This document shows, piece after piece, positions 18,125 through 63,545 of a stretch of 64,000 bases of DNA. Location: the NCBI GenBank assembly GCA_000091205.1, contig AP006489.2, one strand, 5' to 3'. Source of the stretch: Cyanidioschyzon merolae (Eukaryota). A model generated the notes under the pieces. It made no database searches and was not told the origin of the DNA. It saw only the letters and a list, made by a program, of their open reading frames with translations. The stretch's first letter is position 1. Every line of letters begins with the position of its first letter. The translations under genes and the position numbers were made by a program.

Positions 18125-18330
18125 GCGGCACACGGCAATGTCAACATCCCTTGAGCCGACGCCCTCTGTGGTACGGCAACGCCGTTGTGTCTCCGTGCAG
18201 CGACCGCACCGGTGCTATAGGCGCTATTGCTGTCGCTTTCGGCAGGCTCGGCACTCGATAGGACGTATGTAGCGACCAGAATATCCGAGACGAGGTATAG
18301 GTAATGTATCTTGGAGGTAGGGCGTTTGAT
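18125..18330 (-). repeat. Interspersed repeat family A, copy in reverse orientation
   Basis: The reverse complement aligns over ~140 bp with 35335-35480. The conserved core is 'aacggcgttgccgt.cca.agag.gcgtcggctc.a', and '...tgccgtgt' also matches. Confidence 0.55.
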
Positions 18331-21615: not shown

Positions 21616-23274
21616 GGATCATGCTCACGTCGAATGCATTCTCGATGATACTCCCATAGAGGCGAGGATTTGGCATTCGAACGGAATCCATTCTTTAAAG
21701 TTGCGTATTCAGCAATCGCTCGGCATGGGCTCGTAAAGAAGTCGTCGAGGGGCGACGTCGAGATTCTTTCCTCGTCAATCCACTGGCGCGAATTGCAACG
21801 TGTATGATTAGTTAATGAAAAGAAAAATCGAGTTATTGAAGTATGCGTGATTTGAGCATGTTCGCTGTCAGGAACTGGGAGGCGTGCAGGTTAGCGCATA
21901 TAAACTGGATAGTCGTATCTGCCGCTTTACGAACCATTGTTCGAGGGCTTCGCGAATGTTCTTCACTCCGGTGAGATAACGCATTCCATTGGTGACATGT
22001 TTTAGGCACTTCTACGGAGCGAAGACCAAGAATCCTCAACAGTACTTACGGACCCGTAAACCCATATTGGAGTACTTCGATTGTCGAGGCTGTATATCTT
22101 GAGGAAAAATCACCCGGAAAAATAATCGAGATACAAGAAGCGAGCGATCAGTCTAGTGTTCCATTTTACTCTGACACGGGTGTCGTACCCTGCGACTTTT
22201 CTGATGACTGAGATTTCGGTGACTGCTCGCGAAAACGCGTCCGATTTCAGGGCAACTAGACATATCTTCGGAGTAAATCGAAGCCGCAGGCTATGGTCGA
22301 CTAGCGAGAACAGTCTCGTGCGTCACGCACGTGATAGACACCGGGGAATGACCGAAAACCAGAGGCGCTTCCGTGCCCGCTGCTCCCTCGCTGGATGAAG
22401 TCCATGCAAAATCCTGCTTCCAAAGCAAAACCTTTGACAACAGATATGCATCTCAACCTCTTTCTTCTGAGTTTCCGGATTTCACACTGCTTATTGCTGG
22501 GTCACAAAGCGCTCTGCCAACTTCTTTCCCTCAAACGCCATCGTCCGCACCAAGGCCACACAAGTTCGCTCGTACCGATTCCGGCCTGTTCTCGACATGC
22601 CTCGTTCTTCCTCATCGGTACCGAGCTTAAAATTCGTTGCCTGTAGCACCGTCTTCATGTCTGCGGAAACAGTTCCTCGGGTTGCGAGGCAGTGTGAGCG
22701 CCCATGGCCTGCATTCAAGTCAAACCGAATGCATTATCCAAGTACGATGTACGCATGCGTTTCATGCTCATGTGCGCTATGCTTGACCGATCCCCGGGAC
22801 GCTTTAGTTTTTGAACCATCCTGGAGACGCTATGACGCCAGGCGATTCCCGCTGCAACCCTGGGACGACGGTTACCAAGTCCCGTCTCGTGGCCACTACA
22901 GAGGCTGCGGGCTCTACGAAGCCAATTCTCACTGCTGTGCGGTGTGTGAAACAATCTTTGCTTCGGTCCAGTGTCGCTCGAGTAGTTCTCTGCCGCCATT
23001 GGACCTATTTATGCGATCGAAAGTCCGTACCGAACCGGATTTGTTTTGCACGGAAAGCGCCGGTCTTGAGGTAAGTTTACCGTCCTGATGCTGTCCTCAT
23101 TTCCTGGGTCGCAGCTGCAGAACAACCCCGAAAAGCACATGTCTCTCTCTTTAGCGAGCCGTGAACGCTCTAAACTTGTCCATTAAAGCAAGAGTAGCTC
23201 GAACCGGTCAAACGTACATCCCAACAGTGCAAGCGCGACGCAATGCATAGGCGAGCCGCTGGCTGCTAGGTAGC

Positions 23275-29287: not shown

Positions 29288-29425
29288 CTGCACGATATTC
29301 ATGGTATCGAGATGTATGAACGCTCGATCATCGTTCTGCATGATATTCATGGTGTCGAGATTTATGAACGCTTGATCATCGTTCTGCACGATATCCATGG
29401 CGTCGAGTAGCACGAGCGCTTGCGT
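29288..29425. repeat. 48-bp minisatellite, ~2.8 copies
   Basis: 'ctgcacgatattcatggtatcgagatgtatgaacgctcgatcatcgtt' is repeated with a few substitutions (copy starts about 29288, 29336, 29384). Confidence 0.6.
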
Positions 29426-33318: not shown

Positions 33319-35334
33319 ACAGCCAAGGAGAGACAGAGAGAGGGTTTCGTGATCTGTGCTCGGTTCGTACGCCGAGCGTATTCAGGTTTTGCACGTGCAC
33401 TGGTGCGCATGGCTAGCCGCATACGCGAACAGCCTAGGGTGCAGGTGGCGAGTGCGCACTGCCCCGAAAGCAGATATGCATAAACCCAGCGCCCGTGCGC
33501 TGGTGTCGTTCCTGGTGATACCTTGAATCGGGTTGTGGTCTGGTTCGCACGAGCGTCCTGTTACAAAAGCCGATCAGCGTGATTCGAGGCCAAAGATGGA
33601 CCCACCGGAAATCTTCCAGATATACGAAGGCAGCTTTGCGGCACCGTGCCTTGGGTTATACGGGGGTTTACCACCAAGCATGTTCGTACTTTGCGCGGTC
33701 TGCTTCCGAGACCTGTCTCCGATGAGCAGCACAGCACGCCATCAGCAAGCTGTGCTCCAAGCGATGCTCTCGCTCATTTGCTCGCTTCGTTAAGCGCCGA
33801 GTGAGCGCGCTGTCATCCGGCAACATGAGACGGTGGATCCAAGACGGTGCACGCTTGGCGCTCTCTCACAGAATCCACACGACAACTGCAGAGATTCTCA
33901 AGTCGTCTGGCTGAATCCGATGCTTCGCACACGCCCATCCAACCGCATATTGCCGATGTTGACGCGCTCCTCGCTATAACCCGTCTGAAACGAATACGAG
34001 AGGCACCTCAAACGTCAGATGGGCGGCAGCAGTGTACGTTCCAAACTGTGATGCGTATCGTTCATCACTTTCCCTAAAAATACATCCTGCAACTTTTTGG
34101 ACACCTCATACGACCGAGCAGCGAATCTCTCTCCGCATCTCGTGCCAACGTGCACCGTCATTCATACCGCTGCGAGACGGCAGCGTGACTGACTTCCTGA
34201 CACCGCCGGCTCCGATCCAAGGCCTCTGTCACGCGGCTGGGACACGACCAGTGGAACGACCGCCCCTTCGCCCATGGCGCTGCTGGGGCCGCAGCCTTCC
34301 ACTTTTCCCGCCAGACGCACGAAAACGTCCCGCGCACTGAAAACGAGCGCGCCATCGGCCATGCGACGCCGAAGATCGGATATGCGCAGCTCCAGCTGCA
34401 GCTGCGTCCTTGCGACTCCATCGCTTGGATCGGGGCGAGAGGCGCAGCGCTCGGAAACCTCGCGAACAAGTCGGCTCTCGGGGGCTTGCAAGCTCAAGAC
34501 CAAACGATACGCTAGATGCGAGTCTGGAAGAAACGCGAGGCCGCACGATACCAGCTCGCCCAGTACGAAGAGCATGTCGAAGCTTTCCAAAGCCGTGCTG
34601 AGGAACTTTTGACCAAGATCGACAGCAGGTTAGAGAGACTGTGTGAGCGCCTGGAGAAAGTAGAAGAAAAGTGTTGCCAACTCGTCGGAATCAATCCCCA
34701 GCAGAGGGCAGGAGAAAAGTAGGCTGCGTCAACGCCGCACGAGAGCACCGGGCTGGCGTTACCGTTAACGAGAGGCAGGCACGACACGCGAAGCGCTGCG
34801 ACAGCGCGGTGCGTGCCTCGGCCTCATGACGAGCTCAAAGACTGAATCCAGTCCTGAACAGGGTCTCCCGTCGACGCGGCTCGGTCTTCGGACCTGGACA
34901 GCTGTTCCCGTAAAGCCTGCAGCTCAGCTGCCTGACGCTGAAGCTCCGCCTCGAGCTTCCTCCGCGCGTTGCGCTCCCGCTGCGCGTTCATAGAACTACC
35001 AGCCAAATAGCCGATAAAAACTGCACCCACTCGCGCAAAGTTCAAAAGACTCGTATACGACGCCGTGGCACCAGCTGAACCAACAGTTCCGGAAACCATT
35101 CCTGTCTTCTCAGTGCAGTATACCCGTTCCGGGTAGACAGAACGACGCGGATTCGCTGACGGCGAGCAGTGCGCGACTCTACCGATCCACTTTTTTCTTA
35201 ATTTGATCAAATGTTCATAGAGGCCAGCGTTCCCCAGCTGTGCGCTTTGTATCCGCGCGCGGTCATTCATCCATCGATCCACGTCCTACTTCCAAGTTCC
35301 ATACCTCATTCTTCTTCTCGGATATACTCGTCGT

Positions 35335-35480
35335 TTGATCTGCTCTATCGAGCGCCGAGCACCTGCCCTGATCGTCTGCGACAGCGCCTGTACCGTTGGT
35401 ACGGATGCAGCTCGGCAACAGAACGGCGTTGCCGTGCCAGAGAGAGCGTCGGCTCGACAGGTTAAACGAATGCCGTGTCA
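35335..35480 (+). repeat. Interspersed repeat family A, copy with conserved ~140-bp core
   Basis: It shares 'cctgatcgtc.gc.a...gcctgtaccgttggtacggat.cagc.cgg' with 53545-53700 and 'aacggcgttgccgtgccagagagagcgtcggctcgacagg...tgccgtgtcacgg' with 18125-18330. Confidence 0.55.
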
Positions 35481-41804: not shown

Positions 41805-42365
41805 CATTTCATGCACAGGCAAGCGTTCCGATTTGCGCTCGGCATGCCAGATTCATACTTTTTTTGTGTATGGCCTCGATGCGCACTTCGTAGCGGTGAC
41901 GCTCGGCACGGGTATGGTAAGGGGTTTCCATGTAAGAAATGTGCTTTCACCTGCGGGCGGTGCACGACGGTGCATGAACGCCTGCCTCATGGCTCGGTAC
42001 ATGCCCTTGACAGGCGTACAAGGCTTTCCTCGATACTCGGCTCGGTTTCCGCCCCGGTGCACCGCACCCTATGATCACAGGCTTTTTCTGGGCGATCCCC
42101 TTGTCAAGGACGCGGTCCGCCGCACGCGCAAGCTGTTCTGTTCGATACAGGATTTGCGGAATGCGATGCTGTTCATAATGAAACAAGTACCGGAACGAAA
42201 CTCCATCTTGGAGAACAAGTCGCGCAGCATCGATTCGTTTGCGTTGCTTTCGTACAAAGCGGTGGTGTACGCTCTACTGGAAGTGATCGCTGCGATGACA
42301 GGTGCCCGAGTCGAACACCCTTCCCGACGCAAAAGATAGAGATGCAGACGCTATGGAGCATGCTC
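41805..42365 (+). repeat. Interspersed repeat family B, copy 3
   Basis: It aligns with 15080-15645 across ~560 bp. Matching blocks are 'catttcatgcacaggcaagcgtt', 'ggtacatgcccttgacagg', 'tgatcacaggctttttctgggcgat' and 'caggatttgcggaatgcgatgctgttcataatgaaacaag'. Confidence 0.6.
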
Positions 42366-47628: not shown

Positions 47629-48771
47629 ATGGGTATTCGACAGCTGGCGAAGCTTATTGTGGACCATGCGCCACGAGCATATAAAGAACAAGATATTCGG
47701 GCGCTCTTTGGGCGGGTCATCGCCATCGACGCGTCTATGTGCATCTACCAGTTCCTTGTGGCGGTGCGTACGGCGGACGCTGCCAACCTCACCAACGAGT
47801 CTGGTGAGATCACCTCGCACCTCTCGGGAGTATTTTACCGCACCATCAAACTTCTGGAGCTGGGTATCAAGCCCATATACGTCTTTGATGGCAAAGCACC
47901 GGATCTCAAAGCAAATGAGCTCGCAAAAAGGAGATCCCGGCGAGAGGAAGATGAGCAGGCCGCAGCCAAGGCTCGCGAGGAGGGCGACCTCGAGCTCTAT
48001 GCAAAGTACGCTCGACGGGTGAATAAAGTCTCCGCGGAGACCATCGACAATGTGAAGCGTTTGTTGCGCCTCATGGGGATACCTGTTGTCGAGGCGCCCA
48101 GCGAGGCTGAGGCCCAGTGCGCTGTCCTCACCCGAGCAGGTCTTGCCTATGCGACAGCCAGTGAGGATATGGATGCGCTCACGTTTGGTACACCGCTTTT
48201 GATAAGGAATTTGTTTGCAGCGCTGGCATCTGGAGCCGAACGCAAAGATCGCAAACCGAGCGAGTTCTCGTTAGCGATAACGCTAGAGGATCTGGGCATC
48301 TCTATGGATCAATTTATCGATATATGTATTCTGTGTGGTTGCGACTATACCTGTACGATACCGAAAATCGGGCCCTATCGGGCTTTGATGCTGGTCAAAC
48401 AGCATGGCTGCATCGAGGAGGTGCTTGCATCGCTGCGGGAATCCAACCACCCGATACCCGATGATTTTGATTACCTCGGAGCACGAGGACTCTTTAAAGA
48501 GCCGCACGTCAAGGATGCTGCAGATATTGAACCGCTTTTGGAATGGCATGCTCCTAACGAAGAAGGACTCGTGCAGTTCCTGGTCCAGGAGAACAGCTTC
48601 AATGAACAGCTGGTGCGCAAAGCCGTGGAACGCATGACGAAAGCCCTGCGATCGGGGGTTGCAAATCAGTCGCGGCTGGACAATTTTTTCAAGCCGAAAA
48701 CCTTGCCCAAGAAGCATGAGCCAGAGCGGCCATCATCGAAGAGGAGCACGAAACGAGCACGCAAAACCTAA
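47629..48771 (+). CDS. FEN1: Flap endonuclease 1
   Basis: 'MGIRQLAKLIVDHAP...GRVIAIDASMCIYQFL' (XPG-N), 'IKPIYVFDGKAPDLK', the XPG-I motif 'GIPVVEAPSEAEAQCA', the H3TH motif and the C-terminal PIP-like 'QSRLDNFFK' with a basic tail are all present. This is full-length FEN1. Confidence 0.95.
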   Translation: MGIRQLAKLIVDHAPRAYKEQDIRALFGRVIAIDASMCIYQFLVAVRTADAANLTNESGEITSHLSGVFYRTIKLLELGIKPIYVFDGKAPDLKANELAKRRSRREEDEQAAAKAREEGDLELYAKYARRVNKVSAETIDNVKRLLRLMGIPVVEAPSEAEAQCAVLTRAGLAYATASEDMDALTFGTPLLIRNLFAALASGAERKDRKPSEFSLAITLEDLGISMDQFIDICILCGCDYTCTIPKIGPYRALMLVKQHGCIEEVLASLRESNHPIPDDFDYLGARGLFKEPHVKDAADIEPLLEWHAPNEEGLVQFLVQENSFNEQLVRKAVERMTKALRSGVANQSRLDNFFKPKTLPKKHEPERPSSKRSTKRARKT

Positions 48772-49425: not shown

Positions 49426-50029
49426 CCTCGCGAATGGAGTCTAGAGTGGGTATCGTCGAAAAATACAAGTCTATGATCGTTGACGAATTGCCCACGACAA
49501 TCGTTACCAGTAGAAAGAGGTAGAGAGAGAGCTATGCGGCGCGTCAGGCTTGCTCAGTCGCTGAACCCCTCCATACCAGTCCTTTGATCAACGCGAGCAT
49601 CCAGAGCGGTATCTCCTGGTCACCGAGTTTTTGCATCGGAATGCAGCTGCGTTTCAGTACAATGGCCGCACAGAGTGCGAAACGAGTCTCGTTCAAGTTC
49701 GCTCGACACGAAACCGCTGGACGCGACTGAAGCGCAGGACATTTCCGGGTATCGATCGCTGCATGCAAGTAGCGGTTCGGAAAGTGCATGCCCTGCTGGG
49801 TACTGGTGGCATCGCAACACAGCAAGTGTCACCACCAGGTCGATAGTCGCGCCATCTGATGTTGCATCAGTTACCCGATGTACGATCTTGTGAGTCTGGC
49901 TCTGTTTCACGCGCCTCTACGCTGCCGGATTCAACAGGCACCTGTGCTCGCGATACACGTACTTTGTCCTTATTCATTCGCGAAACTCGCATAGATCCGA
50001 TTGCTGGACTCGGTGTATGCTCCTGTCGA
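49426..50029 (+). repeat. ~600-bp dispersed direct repeat, copy 1. It is >98% identical to 57071-57672.
   Basis: The identical ORF translations listed at 49544..49825/57188..57469 and 49620..49910/57264..57554 reflect near-identical DNA. Boundaries were read from where flanks diverge (start 'cgcgaatggagtctagag', end 'ctcctgtcgat'). Confidence 0.8.
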
Positions 50030-50533
50030 TAAAGTCGATGTACTCCGTGTGCGGCGCCCGAAAAGCACACCGAGCCTTGGGCGCAATGCCTTGCTGCTTA
50101 GCCCTCTTGCTTCTGCTTGTAAGGCTGCTATGAAACTTGGAACTCTGTGTCCAACCCGCAACGAAGACCCGTGCTACTATGCCACGCACCTAGAACCAAG
50201 ACTGTTCCAGTGCAGCCTGGGGGTATCTTCGTGCTACTGAGACGCTACCGACAGTGCGTGCGTTCACTTCGCGGCCTCTGCTGGACGCTAGTGCCAGACA
50301 GTCGAGGCTGACTGCGACTCAAGTGCAGTTATGCAGTTCGCTTATCGGGCTCTATGCTCTACACGAGACGCAGCGTCTACAGCACGTTGCAGTCGCGACA
50401 CGCACGCGTGCTTGAAAAGCACCGGTGGCTTCTTCTCTGGTCGCCCTTGTCACGCGCGCTTGCGGAAGCTTGATTTAAGGACACATCGCGCACAGCATAC
50501 AAGAGCACGCTGTACGTCCTCGCACGAAAACCG

Positions 50534-51874
50534 GTGTCTATGCGCAAAAGTTACGATACGCAGGTCGCAACGAACGCCCCGAACAATGACGCGTCAGCGC
50601 GAGCGGTTACGCTACCCAGCTTGCTGCTGTTCGGGACGCGAGGAGCGGCAATAATAGCGTCTGCGGTACTGAACTGTGTTGAGCGTTTACGACAGGCTCG
50701 GGAGGACGTATCGTCCCAACGTTGTTGTTTCCAGTACGCGGGAAGCGAGCATAGCTTCTGTCGTACTGAACTGCGTCGAGCTTTTCAAAGCAGGCTCGCG
50801 GGGACGACCGCTCAGCCCGAGTTGGCTCCGGTCGGGAGCTCGCCTCCACTTCCGAACGGTGGTCTGTTTCGAGCGGAGAGGCTCGTTTTGGGCGGTGTCG
50901 AACCGGACACCTCACCAGGAGGCCCTGCGGTGCAGCACCACCTGATGCAGCAGTCCCAGCAGCACGCGGACGACTCTTGTACAACCGCAGCGCAGCCGAG
51001 CTTGGACTGGAGTGAGCTTGAGGTGTTCGAAAAAATAGCCTCGGGCACAGACACGGACATCTTCCGAGCTTCTCTCCACGGCGATGCGGTCGCTGTGAAG
51101 GTACTCTCCAAGTACGCTTCTACCGACGCTGAAGACGCTTTTAATCGCGAGTGGAGGACCTTCGTGGAGCACGACCTCAGGCACCAGAACATCATCCGCT
51201 TCTACGGCTGGGGCTATCGACCAAACGGGGAGCGCTTTCTTGTCGTAGAGCACGCCAAAGGCGGTAGCTTGCGGCAAGCACTGACTCGGCGACTCTGGAA
51301 GGACATCGGACGAGTGGTTCGCCTCGCCCGCGACATTACCGCTGCACTCGAGTACCTACACAGCCGAAACATTATCTACAGAGACCTCAAGTCCAGCAAC
51401 GTACTCCTGGATGCGTCCTGGAATCGAGCGCTGCTGTGTGATTTCGGAATCGCCAGAGCGATGATAGGCGATGGTGCAGGCCAAATGACCCGCGAATGCG
51501 GTACCTATCAGTACATGTCACCTGAGGTGATTCTCGGGAAAGCAGACTACGGCGAGAAAGCAGATATCTACAGTTTTGGCATCCTTTTGAATGAGATGTG
51601 CACGGGGGAGATTCCCTTCAGTCGTCAGCGACTCCTTCCTGTGCAGGCTGCGGCAGCGGTGGTGAACAAGGGTCTGCGACCCGGTATGCGCGGCTCCGTA
51701 GAGCGCAAGTATCCAGAGTTGCACGCGCTCATTCGCAAGTGCTGGGCGCAACGGGACGATGCTCGACCCACAGCTGCGGAAGCACGCGCTGAACTGGATG
51801 CCATTCTGGTTAAATATTTTTCTGCGGATCAGACGCCGACCGCAGATGCGCAGCTATCCACGGCCACAACTTGA
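50534..51874 (+). CDS. Serine/threonine protein kinase, TKL-like. The functional start may be the internal Met at ~50944.
   Basis: A complete kinase catalytic domain is present: Gly-loop region 'EKIASGTDTDIF', 'AVKVL', 'HQNIIRFYG', the catalytic loop 'IIYRDLKSSNVLLD', 'CDFGIAR', and the activation/P+1 segment 'GTYQYMSPE'. The N-terminal 140 aa contain the frame-shifting tandem duplication. Confidence 0.8.
   Translation: MSMRKSYDTQVATNAPNNDASARAVTLPSLLLFGTRGAAIIASAVLNCVERLRQAREDVSSQRCCFQYAGSEHSFCRTELRRAFQSRLAGTTAQPELAPVGSSPPLPNGGLFRAERLVLGGVEPDTSPGGPAVQHHLMQQSQQHADDSCTTAAQPSLDWSELEVFEKIASGTDTDIFRASLHGDAVAVKVLSKYASTDAEDAFNREWRTFVEHDLRHQNIIRFYGWGYRPNGERFLVVEHAKGGSLRQALTRRLWKDIGRVVRLARDITAALEYLHSRNIIYRDLKSSNVLLDASWNRALLCDFGIARAMIGDGAGQMTRECGTYQYMSPEVILGKADYGEKADIYSFGILLNEMCTGEIPFSRQRLLPVQAAAAVVNKGLRPGMRGSVERKYPELHALIRKCWAQRDDARPTAAEARAELDAILVKYFSADQTPTADAQLSTATT
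50645..50856. repeat. Partial tandem duplication (~106-bp period) within the annotated 5' end of the kinase ORF
   Basis: 'atagcgtctgcggtactgaactgtgttgagcgtttacgacaggctcggg' and 'atagcttctgtcgtactgaactgcgtcgagcttttcaaagcaggctcgcgg' lie 106 bp apart. That is not a multiple of 3, so the two copies are read in different frames. Confidence 0.5.
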
Positions 51875-52757
51875 GACACAGATGATCGTTTCGGCATCTG
51901 TGAGTCAGCGTGTGCGGCAACGAACTGCATTGGATGCGCTGGTATCTGGTCTCGGGCGAGCAGAAGAGAGCGAGACGCGGACGTGGATGCGACGTCACGC
52001 GTGAACGACTGCCCAGAGGCCGTGAAGCCGACTCGAGCGGCGTCTGGGATGAGCGCTTGCTCTCGTGCAGCGCACGAGAGACCGCGTGTAAATTACTCAT
52101 CAGCGAATAGTTATAAGTGGACGCAGGACCCGGGCATGTATTCGGCTGGTGCACAGGGGTCTGGGGTATAGCACCGGTTTGACAGACGCTCCCTGTGGTA
52201 GACGCATGCCTCGCGTCTTGTGAACAGAGCATGTATGCCCAGCGCGAAACTGGATTCGATGTGCCGGACGCTCCAAGTGTAAAGCATGCGATGCCGCATC
52301 TGGTGTTTTCTAGAGTACGCAGGCGTTTTTACGTTCAAGAATAAAGCGAGGCTGGGGCGTGCGAGTGCGACCCCGGCCCATGCCTAGCGCTGCGTGTACA
52401 CTCCGTCTCGATGGGCAACGGCTCGGTCGCAGCAAGCAGCAATGACAATAGCAACACGTTTTGCATTCGGATTCGACTTGAACTGGCATCGAGTCGATGT
52501 ACTCTGCGAAACGGTATCCGACAGCCGTCACAGTCCCTGAGCTTGCAAGGAACCGCGTTGCGACTGTGGCACTGTCGTACGCCCGTACGACACGCAAATA
52601 GCCAGATTCACGCGCGAGCGTCACTGCTCCCAGGAACAAGTGATAGAGTTGCCGCGCTGGGGCGCCTCACAGAAACAGAACGTGTTGTCCAAGTACGCGG
52701 GTGCGAGTTGGCGCGACCGCAGGTTACGCTCGGGCGACGCGGAACCAGAGCCTCACC

Positions 52758-53204
52758 TTACTTAAGCGGGATGAAACGTGACGACGATGAGGCACCAATA
52801 CCTGGCCTCCCGTGCTTAACTGGCTTGTACGTCAAACTGAACTCGCCAAGGTAGTGGCCAACCATATCCCCGCGGATTTCAACCTCGTTGAAGGTGCGCC
52901 CGTTGTGAACTCCGAGGCGTGCACCGATCATCTCCGGAACTATGATCATGTTCCTGCAGTGCGTTTTCACAATCTCCGGCTTGCTGAACTCATCAGGGAC
53001 TTCGGCCTTCGCTTTTCGAATTTTCTTTATGAGCGAGGTCTGCCGACGGTCCAGGCCACGCGCGAGCTTCCGCCGAGCGCGTGCTGGTAAGAGCTCCACC
53101 ATTTCATTGTGCGGCAGCGCAAGAAGTGCCTCCAGGTCTACACCTCTATAGGAAAACTTGCGAAAAGTTCGCTTCTTAGGCGCTGATGAGCTTTCCTCGT
53201 CCAT
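52758..53204 (-). CDS. RPS15: 40S ribosomal protein S15 (uS19)
   Basis: '[18 protein letters not shown]...[56 protein letters not shown]' matches eukaryotic RPS15 along its length. Confidence 0.95.
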
Positions 53205-53544
53205 GGGTTACGCACGCGAGCTTTCCACGTTCAAGGGGTAAACCGTGTACGCCAAGCAGCGCAGAGGGCGGCATCTAAGCGAGTCGCGGCGAGGCCGCGA
53301 GCGGCGACCGCATCTTCCTCATGCTGTACCTTACGCACTTTTAGGGATATATCTGGACTTCATTGGCCTGTCCGATGCGTGCGCGCCTATTTTTGTCCAT
53401 TTTGATGCAATGCTGACCAAGCCAGCGTTCTCTGACCCGGTGCTCGGTATTCGCACGCGGTGGAGCATTCGTGATTCCAGGGCCCGCTTCCAAGTCCCAG
53501 AACCCATCCTTCATCCCGTATACACAGGTTGCTTCATTCGTTCG

Positions 53545-53700
53545 ATCGCTTGCCCAGCGTCTCCCCTGATCGTCCGCAATACTGCCTGTACCGTTGGTAC
53601 GGATACAGCACGGATGCAGTACGGCGTTGCTGTGGTAAACGAGGGCTTCGGGCTCGAGGTTTGCCTCAGACGACACTGAATCAGGGCTCGTCGCCAGTTT
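53545..53700 (+). repeat. Interspersed repeat family A, copy 3. It lies directly upstream of a family B copy, forming a composite.
   Basis: It shares 'cccctgatcgtccgcaatactgcctgtaccgttggtacggatacagcacgg...cggcgttgc' with 35335-35480. Confidence 0.5.
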
Positions 53701-53799
53701 GTGCTCAGCCAGTCTGCGGTTGCAAACTTGCCTTCGCTGCACGACACGTTGGAGCAACTTGGCTGTTAGGATGAATCCTGGGAGGCGCCTCTCTCCTTT

Positions 53800-54380
53800 G
53801 TGATCGTTCATGGAATGCACGATCGTTTAGCGACGCGGGCTATTGCTAGGCACCCACCAGTGGGTAGGCGCAGAAAGCGCACTGGGCCCGTGTGCGCATC
53901 CGATTCGCTGGACCTTTTGCCCAGAGGGTGGCTTGGGCGCGAATGTCCGCCAGGCCGCCGCCTGTCTGTGGCGCACGAACGCTTGCTTCATCGGTCGGTG
54001 CATGCGACGGGCGTATGCAAAGGGTTACACCCTGGATGCTCCTCTCGGTTTGCGCATCCGGTGCTGTACTCTGCGATCATGGGCCTCTTCTGGGCGATTG
54101 CCTCGGCGAGTGCTCTGTCTGCTGTAAACACAAGCGCAAGCGGTTTTACTAGATAGCGGTTATGTTGCATGGGATTTCATATTCTTGATGAAACAGGTAC
54201 CGGGAGGAAAATCCAGGCTGGAGCAGAAGTCGAGAAATGTCGATCTGCCAATGCTCCTTTCGTCCAAATAAGCGACGCCCTGGACATGGAAGCGATCGCC
54301 ACGATGGCTGAATTCCGAGTCCGAGGCCTTTTTCCAGGCACACAGAAGAGACGGAACCCCCTGGGGGCATAGTCCATAAG
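53800..54380 (+). repeat. Interspersed repeat family B, copy 4 (the most diverged)
   Basis: It carries blocks from the other copies: 'gcttcatcggtcggtgcatgc', 'gatcatgggcctcttctgggcgattgcctcggcgagtgc', 'gatgaaacagg' and the terminal 'ccctgggggcatagtcc'. Confidence 0.5.
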
Positions 54381-54995
54381 ATGCAATGCCGCTGCCTGGT
54401 GCCGTTCCCGTGAAGGCCACAAAGAGAGGAGTCTATGTCTGTCATTCGGAATCAATTATGATTTGATTTGACAAGTTCTCGGAAAGTTCGGCTGGAGCTT
54501 GTGTCCAAACAGCGTCAGGCCGACGTCGAGTGTGTTTTTCCTCGTCAGGCCAGCGGCACGAGTTGCTGCATCCATGCATTGCCATGAGATCGAAGTATAG
54601 AAAATTTGGAGAATGCATGGTTTCGGCATGCGGGACGTTTGCAACATTAGAAAATTGGAGGTGTGTACATACGCACTGGATAACGATATTCGTTATTCTA
54701 CGAGCACGCGTTCACTAGCGACGCCAATCATGACGAATTCGTTGACAGCACGCATTCTGGCGGCAGCGTCCCAAAAGATCGATTCCGATGAACGCGACCG
54801 TGAAACCCAAAACAACGAATGATTCGATGAGCCCTGATTCATGACCTTCGAAAGCCGAACCTGTACAGCTTCAAAAAAACTTTCGGAAAAATATTCCAAT
54901 GGTACGAACAGAGCAACCAGTTTAGCGTTCGGTTTTCCGCTTTACGGATTCAAAGCACCGCACCTGGTGCAAGCCGCAACTGCAGCGCGGCGCCA

Positions 54996-55590
54996 GCGCG
55001 GACGCCCACCCCCTGCCAGCGTGGGGCCCATGGAGGTATCGTCTGCTTAGTCTCTAAAGTGGTAATCTATGGTAGTTTTATGCAGAATGACTTGGCAGGC
55101 GCTATGGACCGCGAGGGCGCTGCGCTCGCGTAGCAGATCGTGCAGTTTTATGCGTTGGTAATATAGTGACGCGCATGCGCTTGCGCGGACGCCCACTCCC
55201 TGCCAGCGTGGGGCCCATGGAGGTATCGTCTGCTTAGTCTCTAAAGTGGTAATCTATGGTAGTTTTATGCAGAATGACTTGGCAGGCGCTATGGACCGCG
55301 AGGGCGCTGCGCTCGCGTAGCAGATCGTGCAGTTTTATGCGTTGGTAATATAGTGACGCGCATGCGCTTGCGCGGACGCCCACTCCCTGCCAGCGTGGGG
55401 CCCATGGAGGTATCGTCTGCTTAGTCTCTAAAGTGGTAATCTATGGTAGTTTTATGCAGAATGACTTGGCAGGCGCTATGGACCGCGAGGGCGCTGCGCT
55501 CGCGTAGCATATCGTGCAGTTTTATGCGTTGGAGATATAGTGACGCGCATGCGCTTGCGCGGACGGCTATTACTTGCCAAAGCTGACCAT
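54996..55590. repeat. Tandem array of ~3.1 copies of a ~187-bp unit, immediately upstream of and running into the annotated start of the bilin reductase ORF.
   Basis: Unit starts ('gcgcggacgcccac.ccctgccagcgtggggcccatggaggtatcg...') fall at 54996, 55184, 55370 and a partial one at 55558. Copies differ by only a few substitutions. Periods are 186-188 bp. Confidence 0.85.
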
Positions 55591-56526
55591 CCTGCCGCTT
55601 CACTTGAGCTGTGTGTACGCATGGCTTTTCTTGCAAGCAGTTGCGTAACAACTGCGCATCCGCTAACCCGTCGTTCAGCGAAGCAGCGCTGTGCGGCAGG
55701 GGTCCACGTGCGTCGCGCGTTGCTGGCCTCAGGTGCTGCTGGCGAGCGAAGGTTGCGGCGCGTGCAGCACCCACTGATTCAAAGACTCGCTGAGGGCATA
55801 GAGCGCACTTGGCAGACAGAGCTGCATGACCTTGCGCCGTTTCACCTACCAGAGGACCTAGGCTACATCGAAGGGAAACTCGAAGGCGAGAGAGTCGTTA
55901 TCGAGAATGTCTGTCATCAGAGTCCGGCCTTTCGAAAAATGCATCTGGAGCTAGCACGTGTCGGGACCTCCCAGACCGCGTCCTTGGATATTCTGCACTG
56001 TGTTATGTTCCCGTGCGCTGGGCGCGTCGGAACCAATGTACCCATGTTCGGCTGTGATATTGTAGCGGGACGGGGAGCGGTATCCGCAGCGATCGTCGAC
56101 CTGTCGCCAGTCAGCGCCTCGCGAGAACTGCCGCCGAGCTACCGAGACGCACTGCAGTCGCCGGAAATGGCTGCGCTTCGACGTTTTCGCCAGGTACGCG
56201 AGTTGCCGGCTTGGGGTCGCGAGATCTTCTCCGAATTCTGCGTTTTCATACGCCCGGTGCAGACACCCGAATGCAATGAAGAGGATCGCTTCGTGGATTT
56301 AGTATTGCGGATGCTCCGGATTCACTGCCATCTAGCACAGAAGAGCACGAGCACACCACATCTGGACCAGGTAAGAGAGGCCCTGGAGGGCCAGATTCAC
56401 TACTGTCGAAAACAGCAGGAGAATGACAAAACGCGCCGTGTCCTGGAGAGTGCTTTCGGTAAACCCTGGACGGAGCGCTACATTAGCACGGTGTTGTTTG
56501 ATTCGCCGGTGCTGGCAGCGAACTAG
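55540..56526 (+). CDS. pcyA: Ferredoxin-dependent bilin reductase, PcyA-like (phycocyanobilin:ferredoxin oxidoreductase family), with a transit-peptide-like N-terminus.
   Basis: '[12 protein letters not shown]...DILHCVMFP...[23 protein letters not shown]' closely matches remembered PcyA/FDBR core motifs ([26 protein letters not shown]...VSAAIADLSP). The N-terminal ~90 aa are R/A/S-rich. The first annotated Met lies inside the last tandem repeat unit, so the real start is probably M27 ('MAFLASS'). Confidence 0.75.
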
Positions 56527-57070
56527 ATTACCTTTTGGTAATGCTGTCAAGTGAGTACATGTACAACACGCAAGATGCATTTAGCATTGTAGTCGAGTGG
56601 AGTTCTAGGAGCCGCTCGGTACAAGCTCTTTTCCTGTTGCAGTGCCACGGCGGCGCGGTGTCGTCAGCTGGCGAAGAGGCCTCCACCAGAACCTGAACGT
56701 AAGCGACGCCGCGCTGTACGCTGCCTATTCACCGAGGACGCATCCATGAAACCAACGTGAAACGCATGGCAATGCCGCATGGGTCGTAACGCGAATGCGA
56801 ATGCCGCACAGCGCCTTTTGCATGACGATGATGGATGCAAACCTCCCGATATTTGTGTCGAGTGCCGGATGATGACTGGATGCACGTGCACGTGAAGTCG
56901 AATGGACAGGATGCTGCGGCTGGTACAGCGGCATCGGTCGCTGCCTGCACGGTACAAGCTGTCATGGAATGCGCGCCACTCGAGGGCATTCCATAATAGG
57001 ATATGTGCTCGCTTTGCGCTGGGGTCATGTTGGGAGTACCTGCAACGCGCATCATGCGTTGGACCAGACC

Positions 57071-57672
57071 GGCGCGAATGGAGTCTAGAGTGGGTATCGT
57101 CGAAAAATACAAGTCTATGATCGTTGACGAATTGCCCACGACAATCGTTACCAGTAGAAAGAGATAGAGAGAGAGCTATGCGGCGCGTCAGGCTTGCTTA
57201 GTCGCTGAACCCCTCCATACCAGTCCCTTGATCAACGCGAGCATCCAGAGCGGTATCTCCTGGTCACCGAGTTTTTGCATCGGAATGCAGCTGCGTTTCA
57301 GTACAATGGCCGCACAGAGTGCGAAACGAGTCTCGTTCAAGTTCGCTCGACACGAAACCGCTGGACGCGACTGAAGCGCAGGACATTTCCGGGTATCGAT
57401 CGCTGCATGCAAGTAGCGGTTCGGAAAGTGCATGCCCTGCTGGGTACTGGTGGCATCGCAACACAGCAAGTGTCACCACCAGGTCGATAGTCGCGCCATC
57501 TGATGTTGCATCAGTTACCCGATGTACGATCTTGTGAGTCTGGCTATGTTTCACGCGCCTCTACGCTGCCGGATTCAACAGGCACCTGTGCTCGCGATAC
57601 ACGTACTTTGTCCTTATTCATTCGCGAAACTCGCATAGATCCGATTGCTGGACTCGGTGTATGCTCCTGTCG
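57071..57672 (+). repeat. ~600-bp dispersed direct repeat, copy 2 (pairs with 49426-50029)
   Basis: Only isolated substitutions separate the two copies across ~600 bp, e.g. 'gaggtagag' vs 'gagatagag', 'ctcagtcg' vs 'cttagtcg', 'gtcctttgatc' vs 'gtcccttgatc'. The flanking sequences are unrelated. Confidence 0.8.
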
Positions 57673-59866
57673 ATGGAGCTGGGGTGTGGATTTTGCGGGC
57701 GGCAGCGCATCCAGCACCATAGGCTATTACCGAACGATGAGACTGGCATGTCATTTTTTCTGGTGCACTGAATAAATTGGCGAATGCACGCGTCTTGGCT
57801 CCGAACAATCAAACCCATTCGCGACGTGAGCCCGGTCTTTTGAACTCCTGCAAATGATCGTTTGCGCATAAGATGTAAAGACGTTCATGTACACGCTGAA
57901 TAAAACCTCCAATGTATCTCGCTCCGCTCCATGCAGTACGGGGTGCATCGACATGCGTTCTGACGTGGTCATGTCGCTCGTTGGTATGCCTCGTGACGCC
58001 CATTTAACTCGAATTTCGATCAAAACAAACGCTGGAGTGATAGAGTATCTGCATTCGGCTCGGGTCTTTGGCTTCATCCCCTTGATTTAGCGGCCTTGGC
58101 GACGACCGCGACACCGTGAACTACGGGTTCCAGGCTCACCACGAGGCTTTTCTCGTTGTCAATTGTGAACGGTTGGCAGTGAAGCTCGTTGCTCGACTCT
58201 GGTCCAGATGCTGCGAACTGCATGCAGATTGATGTTCCGTGGGTCTCCCGTATCCCTGAAAACTTCTATCTATTTGTTTCCTGTAAAACGAGAAACAATG
58301 TACGCGCTACGCCAATCCTTTTCGCAAAGCTGTTTGAGTCGTTCGTAGTTGCTCGCAGTAACTAGCTCCTTCTTCGCCTTGTCTTTTACTTGGCGGGTTG
58401 GTATACATAGGGTCACTGTACGCGATATACGGTTATTTTACTCGGAATGCAGACGAACGGAATGGGCAGCGGTACCAAATTTCGCCTTTTATAATCGTAT
58501 ACCCTCTATTGTACAAGTGGCGTTTCTTATCTTCTCCGCCGAATGCACGTCCATGGACCGAAGCGTGTCCCTCTGCTCCCGAGCGTATTCGAGCAGGAAA
58601 GCAACCCCGCAATTCATGGCTGGCGAAAGTGGACACGGACTTGTCTACTGGTACATTAGTAATAAATAGTGTTTTGTCAACAGAGAAGACGCTTTCAATT
58701 TGAATGAACCGGAATGAATAGGCTGGTTCGAAGAGCACCTCAACGACGCACTGCGCTCCATGGTCGTTGTTGATTGACGGAAAACGACCTTGTCGAAAAG
58801 CAGGACAAAAGCATGCCGGTCGGAGATCCCACGAAACGTGCTTCGACGACAGATGAGGTTTCCCATGACCCTTCCTGTATGGCAACTTGTCAGCGATTCC
58901 ATGACAGCGTCGCCACACGGGCTGATCTCGTCTCCATGTTCGCTTGATTCTCCTTTCCGAAAAGCGGCTCTCCCATTTTTGAGAACGCAATATCCATCGC
59001 CTCTATTTTCCCACGAATAACGTCCGATCGAATGAGGCGTTCATCCGTTCCTACTGAAACAAGCGTTTCCATTGCAGCACCAAGTCGATTACGCGACACA
59101 GAACGCACGAGCGAGTCTCGCCGCTGAAGCGCGCTTCTCCCTGGCTCCACCCGAGTATCTCTATCAGCCTCGGTATGAAGCATCCTGGAACTGCATATAT
59201 GCTGTGCCTCTCATGCTGGTGTTTCCTGGAGCATGCACGTCGTGGAATGATCTGAGCAGCACGCTCAAGTGTAGAGAACATGTATGGTGCATTCTGCTTT
59301 TTTTTGAGCGCACGACGTCCATGATCTCGACAACGACCGGGACGATTCATGCGTTCTCTCTGACCCTCGTATGACGAACTTGTAAGCGTCGGGTCTGTCG
59401 TTGACCAGCCAGCAGTGACGCCATCGAGTCTCATCGCGAGCTTTCGCCGACCAACAGGAATCGTTCTTGTTGTTGAATACCACCGAGAGGACCGAATAAA
59501 ACCAGAAACGGCATGCTGGTACGGGCATTCCGGATAAGCACAAGCACGTCAGTGGTCGATACCTTTACGTCACGCGCATCCTCAGCACCGATTCCTACGT
59601 ACCCTAGTCTCTATAGTTGCTCATAACTGAGACGAATATGACGGAACATGTCGCTCGCCTCCTTCGATTCGCATGCCGCTCACGACCGTCTCCGCGAGAC
59701 GTGCACACTTCACGCTGCGAAAGAGGAGAGCGCTCTCACCTGAGCGCTTTCCAGTTGACCGTATGTAGAAGAGAAACTGCTTTTCGTGGAGATATCTCCC
59801 GTGAAGCCCACGCAGCGCCAACCCTGTGCCACAAAGACCGCACGATTCTAATACCATCACTGCTAT

Positions 59867-62800
59867 TTACGAACCTTGGAGTAATCGGGAAACTTCCTCT
59901 TGCAGAGCTGCAAGTGCGGCATCCAGCGAGGTAGCATCACGGCCGCCTGCCTGGGCTTGGGTAGGTTTTCCACCACCGCCACCGCGGCACCGCTTTGCTG
60001 CCGCCTGTAGTAACCGACCCATATGCACGGGCGTCTCGCTAGCCACGAGCGGTGTACAGCGGCCGACCATGATCACTTGTTGCGCACTGGGTGCTGCTGC
60101 TGCTGCTAGCACTACGATACCTCGATCACCAAGTTGCGAGAGGATGGCGTCGGCAGCGGCACCGAGGATATCGTTGTCCCAGGAGCCGAGCGCCGTTCCC
60201 ACTGCGTCTACTTGATCCAGACGCTTGATGAGCAACGCCACCGGCTTGCCAGTCTCTTGTCTGAGCTGCTGCGTTGGCAAGCAGCGCATTGCGAGCGCTT
60301 TGGCAAGCTCTGTGCGCGCACTCGCCGCCTGTCGCTCTAGCAGCTTGTTTTCGTTCAGTAATGCCTCAGCTCGTGCCACGAGCTCGGCGCTTTGGGTCAC
60401 CCGCAAAGTCTGCTGCAGGGTACGCACCAAGAGATCCCGCTGGTTCAGGAAATCGCGAGCGGCCTGCCCGCATATCGCCTCAATCCGCCGAACACCCGAG
60501 GATATGCTACTCTCGCTTAGGACATGAAAGAGGCCAACTTCTGCTGTGTTGCGGACATGGGTGCCTCCACAAAGCTCCATAGAGACCCCTGGCACATTGA
60601 CGACCCGCACCACATCACCGTACTTTTCGCCGAACATCGCGATTGCACCGCGCTGAACCGCTTCCGGATACGGCAGATGCTCTACGATCAACGGATGTGC
60701 TTCGTCAATCCACTGATTGACGAGCTCACTCACCAGCTCCAGTTCACGGTCGGTGAGCGCTCTCGGAGCCGTAAAATCAAAGCGTAGACGCTCTGAGTCG
60801 ACAAGCGACCCCGCCTGGGCGACCTGATCAGCACCAAGGACTTGGCGGAGTGCAGCCTGCAGAAGATGCGTACCTGTGTGGTGTGCCCGAATCCGACGAC
60901 GACGGGCTGCGTCAATACGAGCGGTTACGACGTCACCCACGTGTAGGTCAGCAGAGGTGCCATCCAGGGAGGCTGTATGGATCCAGGCATTGCCCAGCTG
61001 TTGCACGTCGGCAACTCGTAGCGCTATTCGCGGTTCCCGCTGCACCAGCTGCAATTCACCGGTGTCGGCAACCTGTCCTCCGCCTTCAGCATAGAAGGGG
61101 GTGCGGTCCAAAATGACTTGCACTTTGTTCAGCGACCCTTCGGGTACGCTGGCGAGGCTCTGCACTGCCTTGCCATCCACGATAAGGGCCACAATGCGCG
61201 CAGTGGCGACTTGCTCCTGCTCGTAACCAACAAACTCGGTACGGTCTATAGCGGTGCCGTTGCCGCCCAGCTGTGCGACAAGTTCGCTCTCGGCGGGCAG
61301 ATCGATGCTACCCGGTCGACCGCGCTCACGTGCTCGTGCTCGTTGTGCCTCCATACAGCGCTGGAAGGCGTCCATATCGATCTGGAGACCCTGCTCAGCA
61401 GCGATTTCCTGTGTCATCTCAACGGGAAAGCCGTACGTGTCGTAGAGCTCGAAAGCGTCCTCCCCTGAGATATGCCCCCGATTTTCGCGCAAAAGTTCAG
61501 CGAGTAGGGCTTCACCACGTTCCAGCGTTTGCCGAAAACGCACTTCCTCCATCTGCAACTCTCGTGTGATACGAGCGCGATGCTCAGCAACGTGCAAGTA
61601 GCCGGCGTCTGCGGCTAGCGCTACGGCAGTGCCCGCGACCACTTCAGTGAACGCCTGCTCAATACCCAGTTGACGCCCGTGACGAACCATACGGCGAATG
61701 AGGCGCCGCAGCACATACCCACGCCCCAGGTTTGAGGGCTGCACGCCGTCTGCTAACAGGTGGACGACGGCTCGAGCGTGGTCTGCAACGATCTTCGCAG
61801 AAACTCGTTCGCGTTCAGATAGGGAAGCGTACGCCCGGCCGGCAAGCTCCGCCGTCTTGTCAAGCAACGGCCGCATCAGGTCCGTCTCGTAGTTATTCGG
61901 TACACCCTGGAGCACCTGCGCGATTCGCTCCAGTCCCATACCGGTGTCAATGTTTCTGGCTTGCAGGGGCATAAGGCGTCCTTCGGTATCTCGATTAAAC
62001 TCCATGAAAACCAAATTGTACAGTTCAATAAAACGCTCATCGTCATTGAGGTCCAGAATACCCGTTCCGGCGGTGGCCGGCGGCACGCTCGTCTCGTGTC
62101 CGCCGGATGCGACATTCGTGCCCAGCTCCGGCTTAAAGTCGTAGTAGACTTCTGAGCAAGGCCCACAGGGACCGGTCGGTCCACTCGACCAGAAGTTATC
62201 GGTTTCGCTCATGCGAACGATGCGGTGTTCGGGGAGTCCCACCACGTCACGCCAGATCTCGTAGGCCTCCTGATCAGCGTGCAGAACGGATACACAGAGT
62301 CGTTCGCGCGGAATGCCGTACACCTCGGTAATGAGCTCCCAAGCCCACCGGATCGATTGCTCTTTGAAATAATCACCGAAGGAAAAATTTCCCAGCATTT
62401 CAAAAAAGGTGTGGTGTCGTTTGGTGCGTCCAACGTTCTCGATATCATTCGTGCGCAAGCACCGCTGCGCTGAGACTGCTCTTGGGGGATCCGGAGGCTG
62501 CCGCTGCCCCAGAAAGATCGGCTTGAAGGGCACCATGCCCGCTATCGTGAGCAGAATCGTGGGGTCGTCCGGAACCAGAGACGCGGACGGCACAACCCGG
62601 TGTCCTCTTTGCTGATAAAACTCCAGAAACGCAGCCCTAATTTCGTTTGATGATAAGCGTTTTCCGACAGCTACGCGTTCCGCTGCTTTCTTGCGGGCAG
62701 TCGCCTCAGGCGATAAGGTTGCTATCAGCGCCGGGCGAGCACTCCGTTGTGGTCGAGAGAGCGCTCGTTCTCTCTTCGCATACCGATTGATACGTGGACA

Positions 62801-63010
62801 CCACTTCCAACGCGGTAGTGTCCCAGTAGCGTAGTCTCGTAGTGACCATGGTGTCGACCAGGACACCAGGTTGCGCGGCACAAGTTGGCGCAGGCTCGTC
62901 GTTGCCCACTGCATACCTTGTGGTGAATTGGCGAAGCCAAAGGTGTGTTCTTTCAGGTCCATGAGGAACAGCACTCCAGCGCCTTGCTCCGTATGTCTGA
63001 AGTTCCGCAC
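59867..63010 (-). CDS. AARS: Alanyl-tRNA synthetase of bacterial/organellar type, with a ~120-aa N-terminal presequence.
   Basis: The class II AlaRS catalytic core reads 'FLEFYQQRGHRVVPSASLV...FTIAGMVPFKPIF'. An editing domain with the HxxxH...CGGTHV motif ('CGGTHVRNTAEVG') is present. The C-terminal DHHA1-like 'GGGGGKPTQAQAGG' is typical of bacterial AlaRS. The N-terminal extension precedes the conserved 'IRAAFLEFYQQRGH'. Confidence 0.95.
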   Translation of the reverse strand: MRNFRHTEQGAGVLFLMDLKEHTFGFANSPQGMQWATTSLRQLVPRNLVSWSTPWSLRDYATGTLPRWKWCPRINRYAKRERALSRPQRSARPALIATLSPEATARKKAAERVAVGKRLSSNEIRAAFLEFYQQRGHRVVPSASLVPDDPTILLTIAGMVPFKPIFLGQRQPPDPPRAVSAQRCLRTNDIENVGRTKRHHTFFEMLGNFSFGDYFKEQSIRWAWELITEVYGIPRERLCVSVLHADQEAYEIWRDVVGLPEHRIVRMSETDNFWSSGPTGPCGPCSEVYYDFKPELGTNVASGGHETSVPPATAGTGILDLNDDERFIELYNLVFMEFNRDTEGRLMPLQARNIDTGMGLERIAQVLQGVPNNYETDLMRPLLDKTAELAGRAYASLSERERVSAKIVADHARAVVHLLADGVQPSNLGRGYVLRRLIRRMVRHGRQLGIEQAFTEVVAGTAVALAADAGYLHVAEHRARITRELQMEEVRFRQTLERGEALLAELLRENRGHISGEDAFELYDTYGFPVEMTQEIAAEQGLQIDMDAFQRCMEAQRARARERGRPGSIDLPAESELVAQLGGNGTAIDRTEFVGYEQEQVATARIVALIVDGKAVQSLASVPEGSLNKVQVILDRTPFYAEGGGQVADTGELQLVQREPRIALRVADVQQLGNAWIHTASLDGTSADLHVGDVVTARIDAARRRRIRAHHTGTHLLQAALRQVLGADQVAQAGSLVDSERLRFDFTAPRALTDRELELVSELVNQWIDEAHPLIVEHLPYPEAVQRGAIAMFGEKYGDVVRVVNVPGVSMELCGGTHVRNTAEVGLFHVLSESSISSGVRRIEAICGQAARDFLNQRDLLVRTLQQTLRVTQSAELVARAEALLNENKLLERQAASARTELAKALAMRCLPTQQLRQETGKPVALLIKRLDQVDAVGTALGSWDNDILGAAADAILSQLGDRGIVVLAAAAAPSAQQVIMVGRCTPLVASETPVHMGRLLQAAAKRCRGGGGGKPTQAQAGGRDATSLDAALAALQEEVSRLLQGS

Positions 63011-63233
63011 AGTCAGTAAAACCGGTCTTTGACACCTTCACGATGAGAAAGACGACGTCTCGAAAATGCAGAGGCGTATCGTGCTCACACCTCGCTCGCC
63101 GGTGGACTAGCACGGCTGATGGTACGGGAGCCGGGGCGAACGTCGCATCTCCGGCCGGCGGTCGGTGGCTTGATCATCACCTGGCTCAGCGAGGTACAGC
63201 ATTGAGCATCTGAGCGGTTGTATGGTACTCTGG

Positions 63234-63545
63234 ACGGAGCTGGTGAAGGAAACGCAGCTATGATAGATCTCTCGTTGTTGTATAGGCTGTATAGAGCAAT
63301 ATAGGCGAAAGAGAACGCAACCGATTCCTGTTTATCAATGAATGAACACTCTCTGGTCAAGCAGGTGTCTCTGGATAACGTTCTTTTTTGGAGATTTCGA
63401 CGGAGCTGGTGAAGGAAACGCAGCTATGATAGATCTCTCGTTGTTACATAGGCTGTATAGAGCAATATAGGCGAAAGAGAACGCAACCGATTCCTGTTTA
63501 TCAATGAATGAACACTCTCTGGTGAAGCAGGTGTCTCTCGATAGA
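63234..63545. repeat. Tandem duplication (~165-bp period, ~1.9 copies) in the 5' flank of the AlaRS gene
   Basis: 'acggagctggtgaaggaaacgcagctatgatagatctctcgttgtt..ataggctgtatagagcaatataggcgaaagagaacgcaaccgattcctgtttatcaatgaatgaacactctctggt.aagcaggtgtctct' occurs twice, with starts at about 63234 and 63399. Confidence 0.75.

Follow-up and report, generated by a model that had tools for sequence, protein, structure and literature searches.

Tandem multiplication of a short segment in front of a single gene is known from several promoter alleles, such as the 126-bp segment repeated five times at CYP51 of Penicillium digitatum, the TR34 and TR46 alleles of cyp51A in Aspergillus fumigatus and the 72-bp enhancer of SV40. 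In systems of this type, the promoter-proximal segment is single in most strains and forms a head-to-tail multimer in some, and the extra copies have been found to increase transcription and to be favoured by selection. Here we describe a 187-bp tandem array in the 5' flank of PCYA, a bilin reductase gene, in a stretch of 64,000 nucleotides of Cyanidioschyzon merolae (GenBank assembly GCA_000091205.1, contig AP006489.2), hereafter the window. It represents a young tandem duplication specific to the strain, or a variable number tandem repeat (VNTR) of low copy number, upstream of a known gene. Our reading of the whole locus is PCYA preceded by a triplication of the upstream segment of the type found in strain 10D, made by slippage or exchange, with translation starting at the second in-frame ATG, downstream of the array. 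We give this reading a probability of about 0.72.

The enzyme has already been described. Recombinant CMG110C (CmPCYA) turns biliverdin directly into phycocyanobilin (FEBS J 2026, PMC13193486), a four-electron reduction of biliverdin IXa. It is the one and only ferredoxin-dependent bilin reductase (FDBR) of C. merolae, and the published phylogeny puts it in the PcyA clade (PMC13193486). The cyanobacterial PcyA proteins of Nostoc PCC 7120 (PDB 2G18, E = 9e-80) and Synechocystis PCC 6803 (PDB 2D1E, E = 3e-78) align with CmPCYA across the whole catalytic domain at 55-60% identity, and they have the Glu, His and Asp motifs and the reaction in common with it (reaction: PMC13193486). Unlike them, CmPCYA is nuclear-encoded and has an N-terminal presequence of about 43 residues. 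It also carries insertions of 3-4 residues each: TSQT after ARVG, GRV within PCAGRVGTN, AAL ahead of the RRFRQ motif, and ECN with one further residue ahead of the conserved EE.

Identity of the gene

The sole long open reading frame (ORF) at the locus lies at 55540-56526 (+) and has 328 codons when counted from a GTG. From its probable true start (MAFLASS...), the PCYA coding sequence runs from 55621 to 56526 (+), with 301 codons plus the stop, and JGI protein P0127 has the same extent. The product matches Pfam PF05996 (Fe_bilin_red) with E = 2.1e-66 over profile positions 3-228 of 228. Its score with the NCBIfam PcyA equivalog NF002760 is 294.3 bits (cut-off 206); the PebB and PebA models reach 54 bits (cut-off 327) and 43 bits (cut-off 263). 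PDB chains of PcyA are matched at 1e-77 to 9e-80, from query residue 44 to the end, and the best database matches are all annotated as PcyA.

The active-site stretch lies at 55948-56058 (+), with Glu at 55948-55950 (GAG), His at 55996-55998 (CAC) and Asp at 56056-56058 (GAT), the last within the motif FGCDIV. In an alignment of red-algal and cyanobacterial PcyA, these catalytic residues are the invariant columns E137, H153 and D173, which we take to be Glu76, His88 and Asp105 of the Synechocystis enzyme, as the spacing also indicates once the insertions are removed.

The 325-residue product counted from the first in-frame ATG is 100% identical to BAM79625.1 / XP_005535911.1 of C. merolae 10D (CMG110C). 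The locus is therefore the nuclear PCYA gene (CMG110C) of C. merolae, and since the activity of the identical protein is published, it counts as already known and characterised. An initial annotation, made from the sequence alone, had proposed a PcyA-type FDBR of a phycobiliprotein-containing alga. Both proposals hold: the Pfam, NCBIfam and PDB matches, the invariant catalytic residues and the published activity agree on the enzyme, and the protein is identical to that of the alga C. merolae 10D. Orthologues are found in Cyanidiococcus yangmingshanensis (KAK4533649.1, 70% identity) and Cyanidium caldarium (KAK4537608.1, about 57% identity).

Structure of the array

Tandem Repeats Finder places the array at 54996-55565, with a period of 187, 3.0 copies, 98% matches, no indels and a score of 1112, which confirms the 187-bp array that had been noted in the 5' flank of a PcyA-like gene. 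In total it amounts to 187 bp x 3.05 in near-identical, head-to-tail units, as in a minisatellite or VNTR. Three complete units of 187 bp lie on the + strand at 54996-55182, 55183-55369 and 55370-55556. They are followed by a partial fourth unit of 9 bp (GCGCGGACG, 55557-55565, +), with which the array ends according to the same program. The three copies differ at just four unit positions, 15, 141, 164 and 165. Unit 1 has C at 15, G at 141 and TA at 164-165; unit 2 has T, G and TA; unit 3 has T, T and AG.

Every unit is closed by a 21-bp GC-rich motif that contains an ATG, and the copy of this ATG at 55549 shares the PCYA frame. Three copies of the string ATGCGCTTGCGCGG are present (55175, 55362 and 55549), and a 14-mer from the unit end was counted 3 times against 0 expected in shuffles. 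The inverted-repeat scan and the alignment show an 18-bp GC-rich quasi-palindrome, CGCGCATGCGCTTGCGCG, at 55544-55561, which is also present at 55170-55187 and 55357-55374 and so falls exactly on every unit junction. No further copies of the unit were found by BLAST within the 64 kb window.

At the upstream boundary, alignment with environmental alleles reveals a degenerate 21-bp direct repeat at 54985-55004 (+), reading GCGCG-GCGCCAGCGCGGACG. Environmental alleles with a 236-nt spacing (see below) read GCGCATGCGCTTGCGCGGACG at this site. In the window, just the last 9 bp (GCGCGGACG, 54996-55004) still match the unit, and because the diverged 21-mer retains no more identity than this, the array is called from 54996.

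Copy number among assemblies

We recovered 34 C. merolae-like contigs from JGI, ENA and Logan through exact-protein look-ups. These are 98.0-99.7% identical to the window, and units were counted from the distance between two conserved anchors flanking the array. This distance is 609 nt in the window (3 units), 234-236 nt in 14 spanning contigs (1 unit) and 49 nt in contig L019 (0 units). The gaps between these values, 374 and 187 nt, correspond to exactly two units and one. Contig L031 has one unit by BLAST, which brings the single-unit spanning contigs to 15.

Copy number thus varies between strains, with 3 units in the window, 1 in 15 contigs and 0 in one, as expected of a VNTR. The suggestion of a recently expanded minisatellite gains support from these numbers among independent assemblies. 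Formally, the array is absent or collapsed in the other strains, an outcome that the initial annotation had associated with an assembly artefact; we do not adopt that explanation. The difference is read as polymorphism because the divergence of the contigs from the window, 0.4-1.8%, excludes re-assembly of the same strain.

The single-unit contigs are informative in a further respect. One of them is 78.5 kb long and resolves both copies of a 602-bp direct repeat that brackets the locus. Three ENA contigs (named k141_*, presumably in MEGAHIT style) and one JGI contig are also single-unit and run unbroken between the 602-bp copies; k141_* contigs of this kind could not form if the array gave a de Bruijn cycle. 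The breaks in these contigs fall at the 602-bp repeat and spare the 187-bp unit, which is therefore a real single copy in those samples and has not been collapsed.

Seventeen more contigs start inside or shortly after the unit, between 55357 and 55596, and give no firm information on copy number. Explaining the break points by de Bruijn k-mer sizes gave a partial fit only (e.g. 55432/55433 with k = 77), and this idea was set aside. Contig L002 opens with 13 nt whose first base fits a unit-to-unit junction and not the flank, and this single 5' base is a hint of a multi-copy allele elsewhere.

Three contigs of one JGI series carry unrelated sequence (L025:1-1267, L026:1-86 and L027:1-123) joined to PCYA at 55573, 55553 and 55596, respectively, all shortly downstream of the array. 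The foreign part of L025 is a low-GC ribosomal L7Ae gene. All three resemble chimeras produced where a transcript or contig ends.

Start of translation

Three candidate starts lie in one frame: GTG at 55540 (MTRM...), a first ATG at 55549 (ATG1, MRLRGR...) and a second ATG at 55621 (ATG2, MAFLASS...). As the array ends at 55565, both GTG and ATG1 are repeat sequence, and so are the first 8-9 codons of the ORF counted from GTG. The GTG is the start picked by prokaryote-style gene callers (JGI protein P0001). ATG1 (55549-55551, +) is the annotated start of BAM79625.1 / CMG110C (325 residues, MRLRGR...). The initial annotation was therefore right that the annotated start lies in the repeat and mistaken in letting it begin with MTRM, which belongs to the GTG. 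Because the 21-bp motif ends every unit, the annotated ATG is present three times; the copies at 55175 and 55362 are identical to it, and each opens an upstream open reading frame (uORF) of 20 codons.

Orthologue N-termini align on MAFLASS: Cyanidiococcus has MVFISS (KAK4533649.1), the species labelled P0003 has MESAGN-MGFINN (Met7) and Cyanidium has MHLAAFTSS. None of these aligned orthologues has a counterpart to the 24-27 residues upstream of MAFLASS. Polymorphism points the same way. Among 32 independent sequences, 8 variable sites were counted in the 72 nt that begin with ATG1 and end before ATG2 (55549-55620). From ATG2 to the stop the figure is 3 of 906, with only one of the three synonymous (32 environmental and reference sequences). 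The difference is significant (Fisher p = 8e-8), and the non-coding flank has 31 variable sites out of 996. We conclude that translation quite likely starts at ATG2 (55621), 72 nt after the annotated start, as had been suspected; orthologue N-termini and polymorphism density support this, short of proof. On the same two grounds, the stretch between the two ATGs (55552-55620, +), annotated as coding, is probably 5' leader or promoter.

The N-terminal extension of about 43 residues (55621-55749, +), which precedes the start of the PDB alignment at residue 44, is presumed to be a plastid transit peptide. It is absent in cyanobacterial PcyA, has 7 basic, 1 acidic and 7 Ser/Thr residues, and carries Phe at position 3, conserved in the orthologues. 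Transit peptides of red algae and glaucophytes typically have such an N-terminal Phe. This agrees with the transit-peptide-like N-terminus noted at the outset, with plastid targeting predicted from these features.

Two side observations concern the same gene. Within the PCYA coding sequence (55621-56526), the scarcity of synonymous variation is stronger than expected, with flanking DNA varying at about 3%. In addition, the orthologue of Cyanidiococcus yangmingshanensis (L021:4749-5000) is annotated with 306 residues in one entry (KAK4533649.1) and 390 in another (KAF6000869.1). Since these annotations disagree on the start, the uncertainty about the PCYA start reaches beyond C. merolae.

Formation of the array

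The perfect 21-bp direct repeat GCGCATGCGCTTGCGCGGACG, within which the 18-bp quasi-palindrome lies, flanks the unit on both sides in most single-unit alleles. L019 keeps a single copy of the 21-bp motif. These alleles suggest a course of events in which the 187 bp directly upstream of the coding region would be single-copy between the 21-bp repeats in natural populations. Replication slippage or unequal sister-chromatid exchange at these repeats would either delete the segment, giving the 0-unit state, or duplicate it. Once two copies were in place, 187 bp of homology would make a third easy, and the strain of the window (10D type) would in this way have arrived at three. The upstream 21-mer of the window would since have diverged to its present form, with its ATG destroyed and 9 bp of identity remaining.

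The unit positions 164-165 add to this history. AG is found there in every single-unit allele, as in copy 3, and TA occurs just in copies 1 and 2, a pattern that points to a second duplication of an upstream copy that had already mutated. The array probably came about through slippage or unequal exchange between the 21-bp direct repeats, a mechanism deduced from the arrangement of the alleles. Both processes classically act on such sequences, and the quasi-palindrome is the place where they are likely to have occurred.

We also compared the unit with the spacers between RPS15 and PCYA in Cyanidiococcus and in the P0003 species, in order to polarise the change as insertion or deletion. They could not be aligned with the unit, with a best E of 0.45.

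Possible role of the unit

The unit ends 56 nt before ATG2, and this position is what speaks for the candidate promoter or enhancer module of the initial annotation. It contains an ATATAG motif at 55535-55540 and seven ATGs, each opening an ORF of 3-30 codons. About 6 of its 187 sites vary, the same level as in the neutral flank (31/996), and so no extra constraint is visible on it. As for structured RNA, there was no Rfam match at E <= 1 in 52500-58500 and no tRNA by ARAGORN; folding of the unit on both strands gave z-scores of -0.15 and +0.31 against shuffled controls.

Since translation most likely begins at ATG2, the array would multiply promoter-proximal or 5'-leader DNA and not coding sequence. 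The annotation would have taken the in-frame ATG of the 21-bp motif, of which the array holds three copies, as the start. Translation from ATG2 would give a 301-residue precursor whose transit peptide, with Phe at position 3, is of the red-algal type, and PCYA, as sole bilin reductase of the alga, would then reduce biliverdin IXa to phycocyanobilin in the plastid. Transcripts from upstream units would be expected to translate PCYA poorly, because each extra unit adds seven upstream ATGs with short ORFs.

Contig ends at the locus show some regularity. L008, L009, L010 and L030, from different samples, all start at 55539/55540, and L031 and L010 end at 56584-56598, 58-72 nt past the stop codon. 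If the samples are metatranscriptomes, these ends could be a transcription start site (TSS) and a poly(A) site; we do not count them as TSS evidence, and no poly(A) was seen at the contig ends. A Yellowstone project dominated by C. merolae (Lemonade Creek) comprises 12 metagenomes (PMC11662350); its sampling of 2 habitats at 4 time points, with 4 replicates and 2 library types, gives 64 metatranscriptomes by our count. The sample identifiers of the contigs are absent from the text and supplements of that paper (PMC11662350).

Alternative explanations

Several observations pull against the reading of the locus given at the outset, both for the copy number and for the start codon. None of the 16 other contigs crossing the locus has two or more complete units, so the three-copy state is seen in one sequence, the window. 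The 0-unit state comes from L019, a single short contig of unknown sample type, and this allele could be cDNA or an assembly artefact formed at the 21-bp repeat. It could be argued from such counts that the three-copy array is itself an artefact of the reference assembly and that the real genome has one unit: 15 of the 16 independent crossing contigs have one, the other has none, and a scan of the metagenome collection with the unit end (a 33-nt pattern), looking for junctions or other sites, returned a single contig, already known as single-unit. We consider this quite improbable. The four copy-specific substitutions speak against an artefact, because duplicated reads would not create them, and the TA of copies 1 and 2 is in no single-unit allele. 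The other assemblies come from different strains, as their divergence shows, and the seventeen contigs that break in or just after the unit do so as expected from repeats or mixed alleles. Moreover, the 10D genome was finished by Sanger sequencing, whose reads can span a 570-bp array. The allele of L019, which lacks exactly one unit, and the direct repeats around the unit would also suit a small mobile element, similar to a miniature inverted-repeat transposable element (MITE), that was amplified locally, with the 0-unit allele as the empty site and the direct repeat as target-site duplication; relics of dispersed repeat families do lie in the same intergenic region. We find this far-fetched, as 21 bp far exceeds the usual target-site duplications, and the scan of the unit for terminal inverted repeats gave self-palindromic junction motifs only. 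The unit also has neither coding capacity nor an RNA-like fold, and no second copy of it exists in the 64 kb, in which other repeat families are present 2-4 times. The hallmarks of a MITE-like element, namely terminal inverted repeats, a short target-site duplication and dispersed copies, the last sought in the 64-kb window, are thus all missing.

For the start codon, the alternative is that the annotation is correct: ATG1 would start translation, its 24 extra residues would begin the transit peptide, and the repeat would duplicate a real start codon together with its promoter. Use of ATG1 is made possible by its frame, which is in register and open in all 32 sequences. Of the 8 sites that vary from ATG1 to ATG2, four carry synonymous substitutions at third codon positions of the PCYA frame, and the protein made from the ATG1 construct is active in vitro (PMC13193486). 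Four contigs also begin at 55539 or 55540, shortly upstream of ATG1. A codon-position bias among these polymorphisms would point to coding constraint, but with 4 of 7 events at third positions it is not significant by our own binomial estimate. We regard a start at ATG1 as unlikely, since the orthologues lack these residues and M-x-F-[IL] is aligned at ATG2 in three species. The stretch is about 30 times as variable as the coding sequence and at least as variable as the flank, with Leu changed to Gln in one allele and to Arg in another. The ATG1 extension has two acidic residues in 24, compared with one in the 43 of the MAFLASS presequence, and it shifts the conserved Phe away from the N-terminus. 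Were 55540 a TSS, ATG1 would lie only 9 nt from the cap, which is too near for efficient recognition. A related possibility, which we find doubtful, is that the unit holds the PCYA core promoter and TSS, so that the triplication in 10D, the laboratory model strain, would create three tandem start sites, two of them with uORF-laden leaders; the contig starts that recur at 55539/55540 are a hint of this. If this were true, expression of the bilin reductase, and with it the supply of phycobilisome pigment or bilin signalling, would differ between 10D and wild populations, whose alleles have a single unit or no unit. The more general assignment of the unit to promoter-proximal or 5'-leader DNA is deduced from its position, which likewise tempers our confidence. 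With all this considered, a triplicated upstream segment followed by a start at ATG2 remains the reading we prefer.

Genomic context and other repeats

PCYA lies in a block of XPG/FEN1 (47629-48771), a protein kinase (50534-51874), RPS15 (52758-53204, -), PCYA and AlaRS (59867-63010, -). This order is the same in Cyanidiococcus yangmingshanensis and a third species, and the arrangement RPS15(-) / PCYA(+) / AlaRS(-) is seen in Cyanidiococcus (L021) and the P0003 species (L022/L023). A contrasting picture is seen in the RPS15-PCYA spacer, which is 2416 bp long in C. merolae and 470-580 bp in these two, where it has neither a tandem array nor similarity to the unit.

Part of the C. merolae spacer (53421-53657 and 53970-54531) is made up of diverged dispersed repeats that share 65-71% identity with other sites of the window. 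Related copies are found at 15322-15791, 21281-21616, 35223-35457 and 41969-42222, with an inverted one at 18153-18246. The 602-bp direct repeat occupies 49429-50030 and 57073-57674, with 99.3% identity and no long ORF. It brackets the protein kinase - RPS15 - PCYA block, and several metagenome contigs end within it. It could represent a solo long terminal repeat or a dispersed element of recent origin.

A second tandem duplication, of 166 bp x 1.9 with 93-97% identity, is present at 63218-63543, some 200 bp ahead of the start of AlaRS (63010, -). Because of this second case, promoter-proximal tandem duplications may be common in this genome. Other tandem repeats in the window are a perfect 9-bp repeat of 15.8 copies (GCTGCTCCT) at 10335-10476 and a 48-bp repeat of 2.5 copies at 29288-29407.

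Practical consequences

The value of these observations is mainly practical, for annotation and for the design of constructs and primers, as the variant is of an ordinary type beside a known gene. For CMG110C, the reference annotation probably places the start 72 nt upstream of the real one, at the ATG within the repeat. The published expression construct starts at ATG1 with the full presequence, and chaperone co-expression was needed to obtain active enzyme (PMC13193486). A construct starting near RRVQHPL may behave better. The core of the published forward primer, ATGCGCTTGCGCGG, has three perfect sites in the strain of the window. C. merolae 10D is edited by homologous recombination, and arms or promoter fragments taken from this region carry a recombination-prone triplication, unlike those of wild strains.

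Comparison with known systems

As a phenomenon, young tandem duplication is well known. The locus offers a clean case, with 0, 1 and 3 copies and the short direct repeat that would have seeded them still visible. The array resembles minisatellite and VNTR loci in its near-identical head-to-tail units, its variation between 0, 1 and 3 copies and its GC-rich junction motifs. It differs from them in its unit of 187 bp, where 10-100 bp is typical, and in its very low copy number. Since the unit is long, the copies are few and most alleles are unrepeated, young tandem duplication is a better label than minisatellite. Finally, when set beside the promoter alleles of CYP51, cyp51A and SV40, the PCYA unit stands apart in carrying an in-frame ATG and seven upstream ATGs, which might reduce translation.

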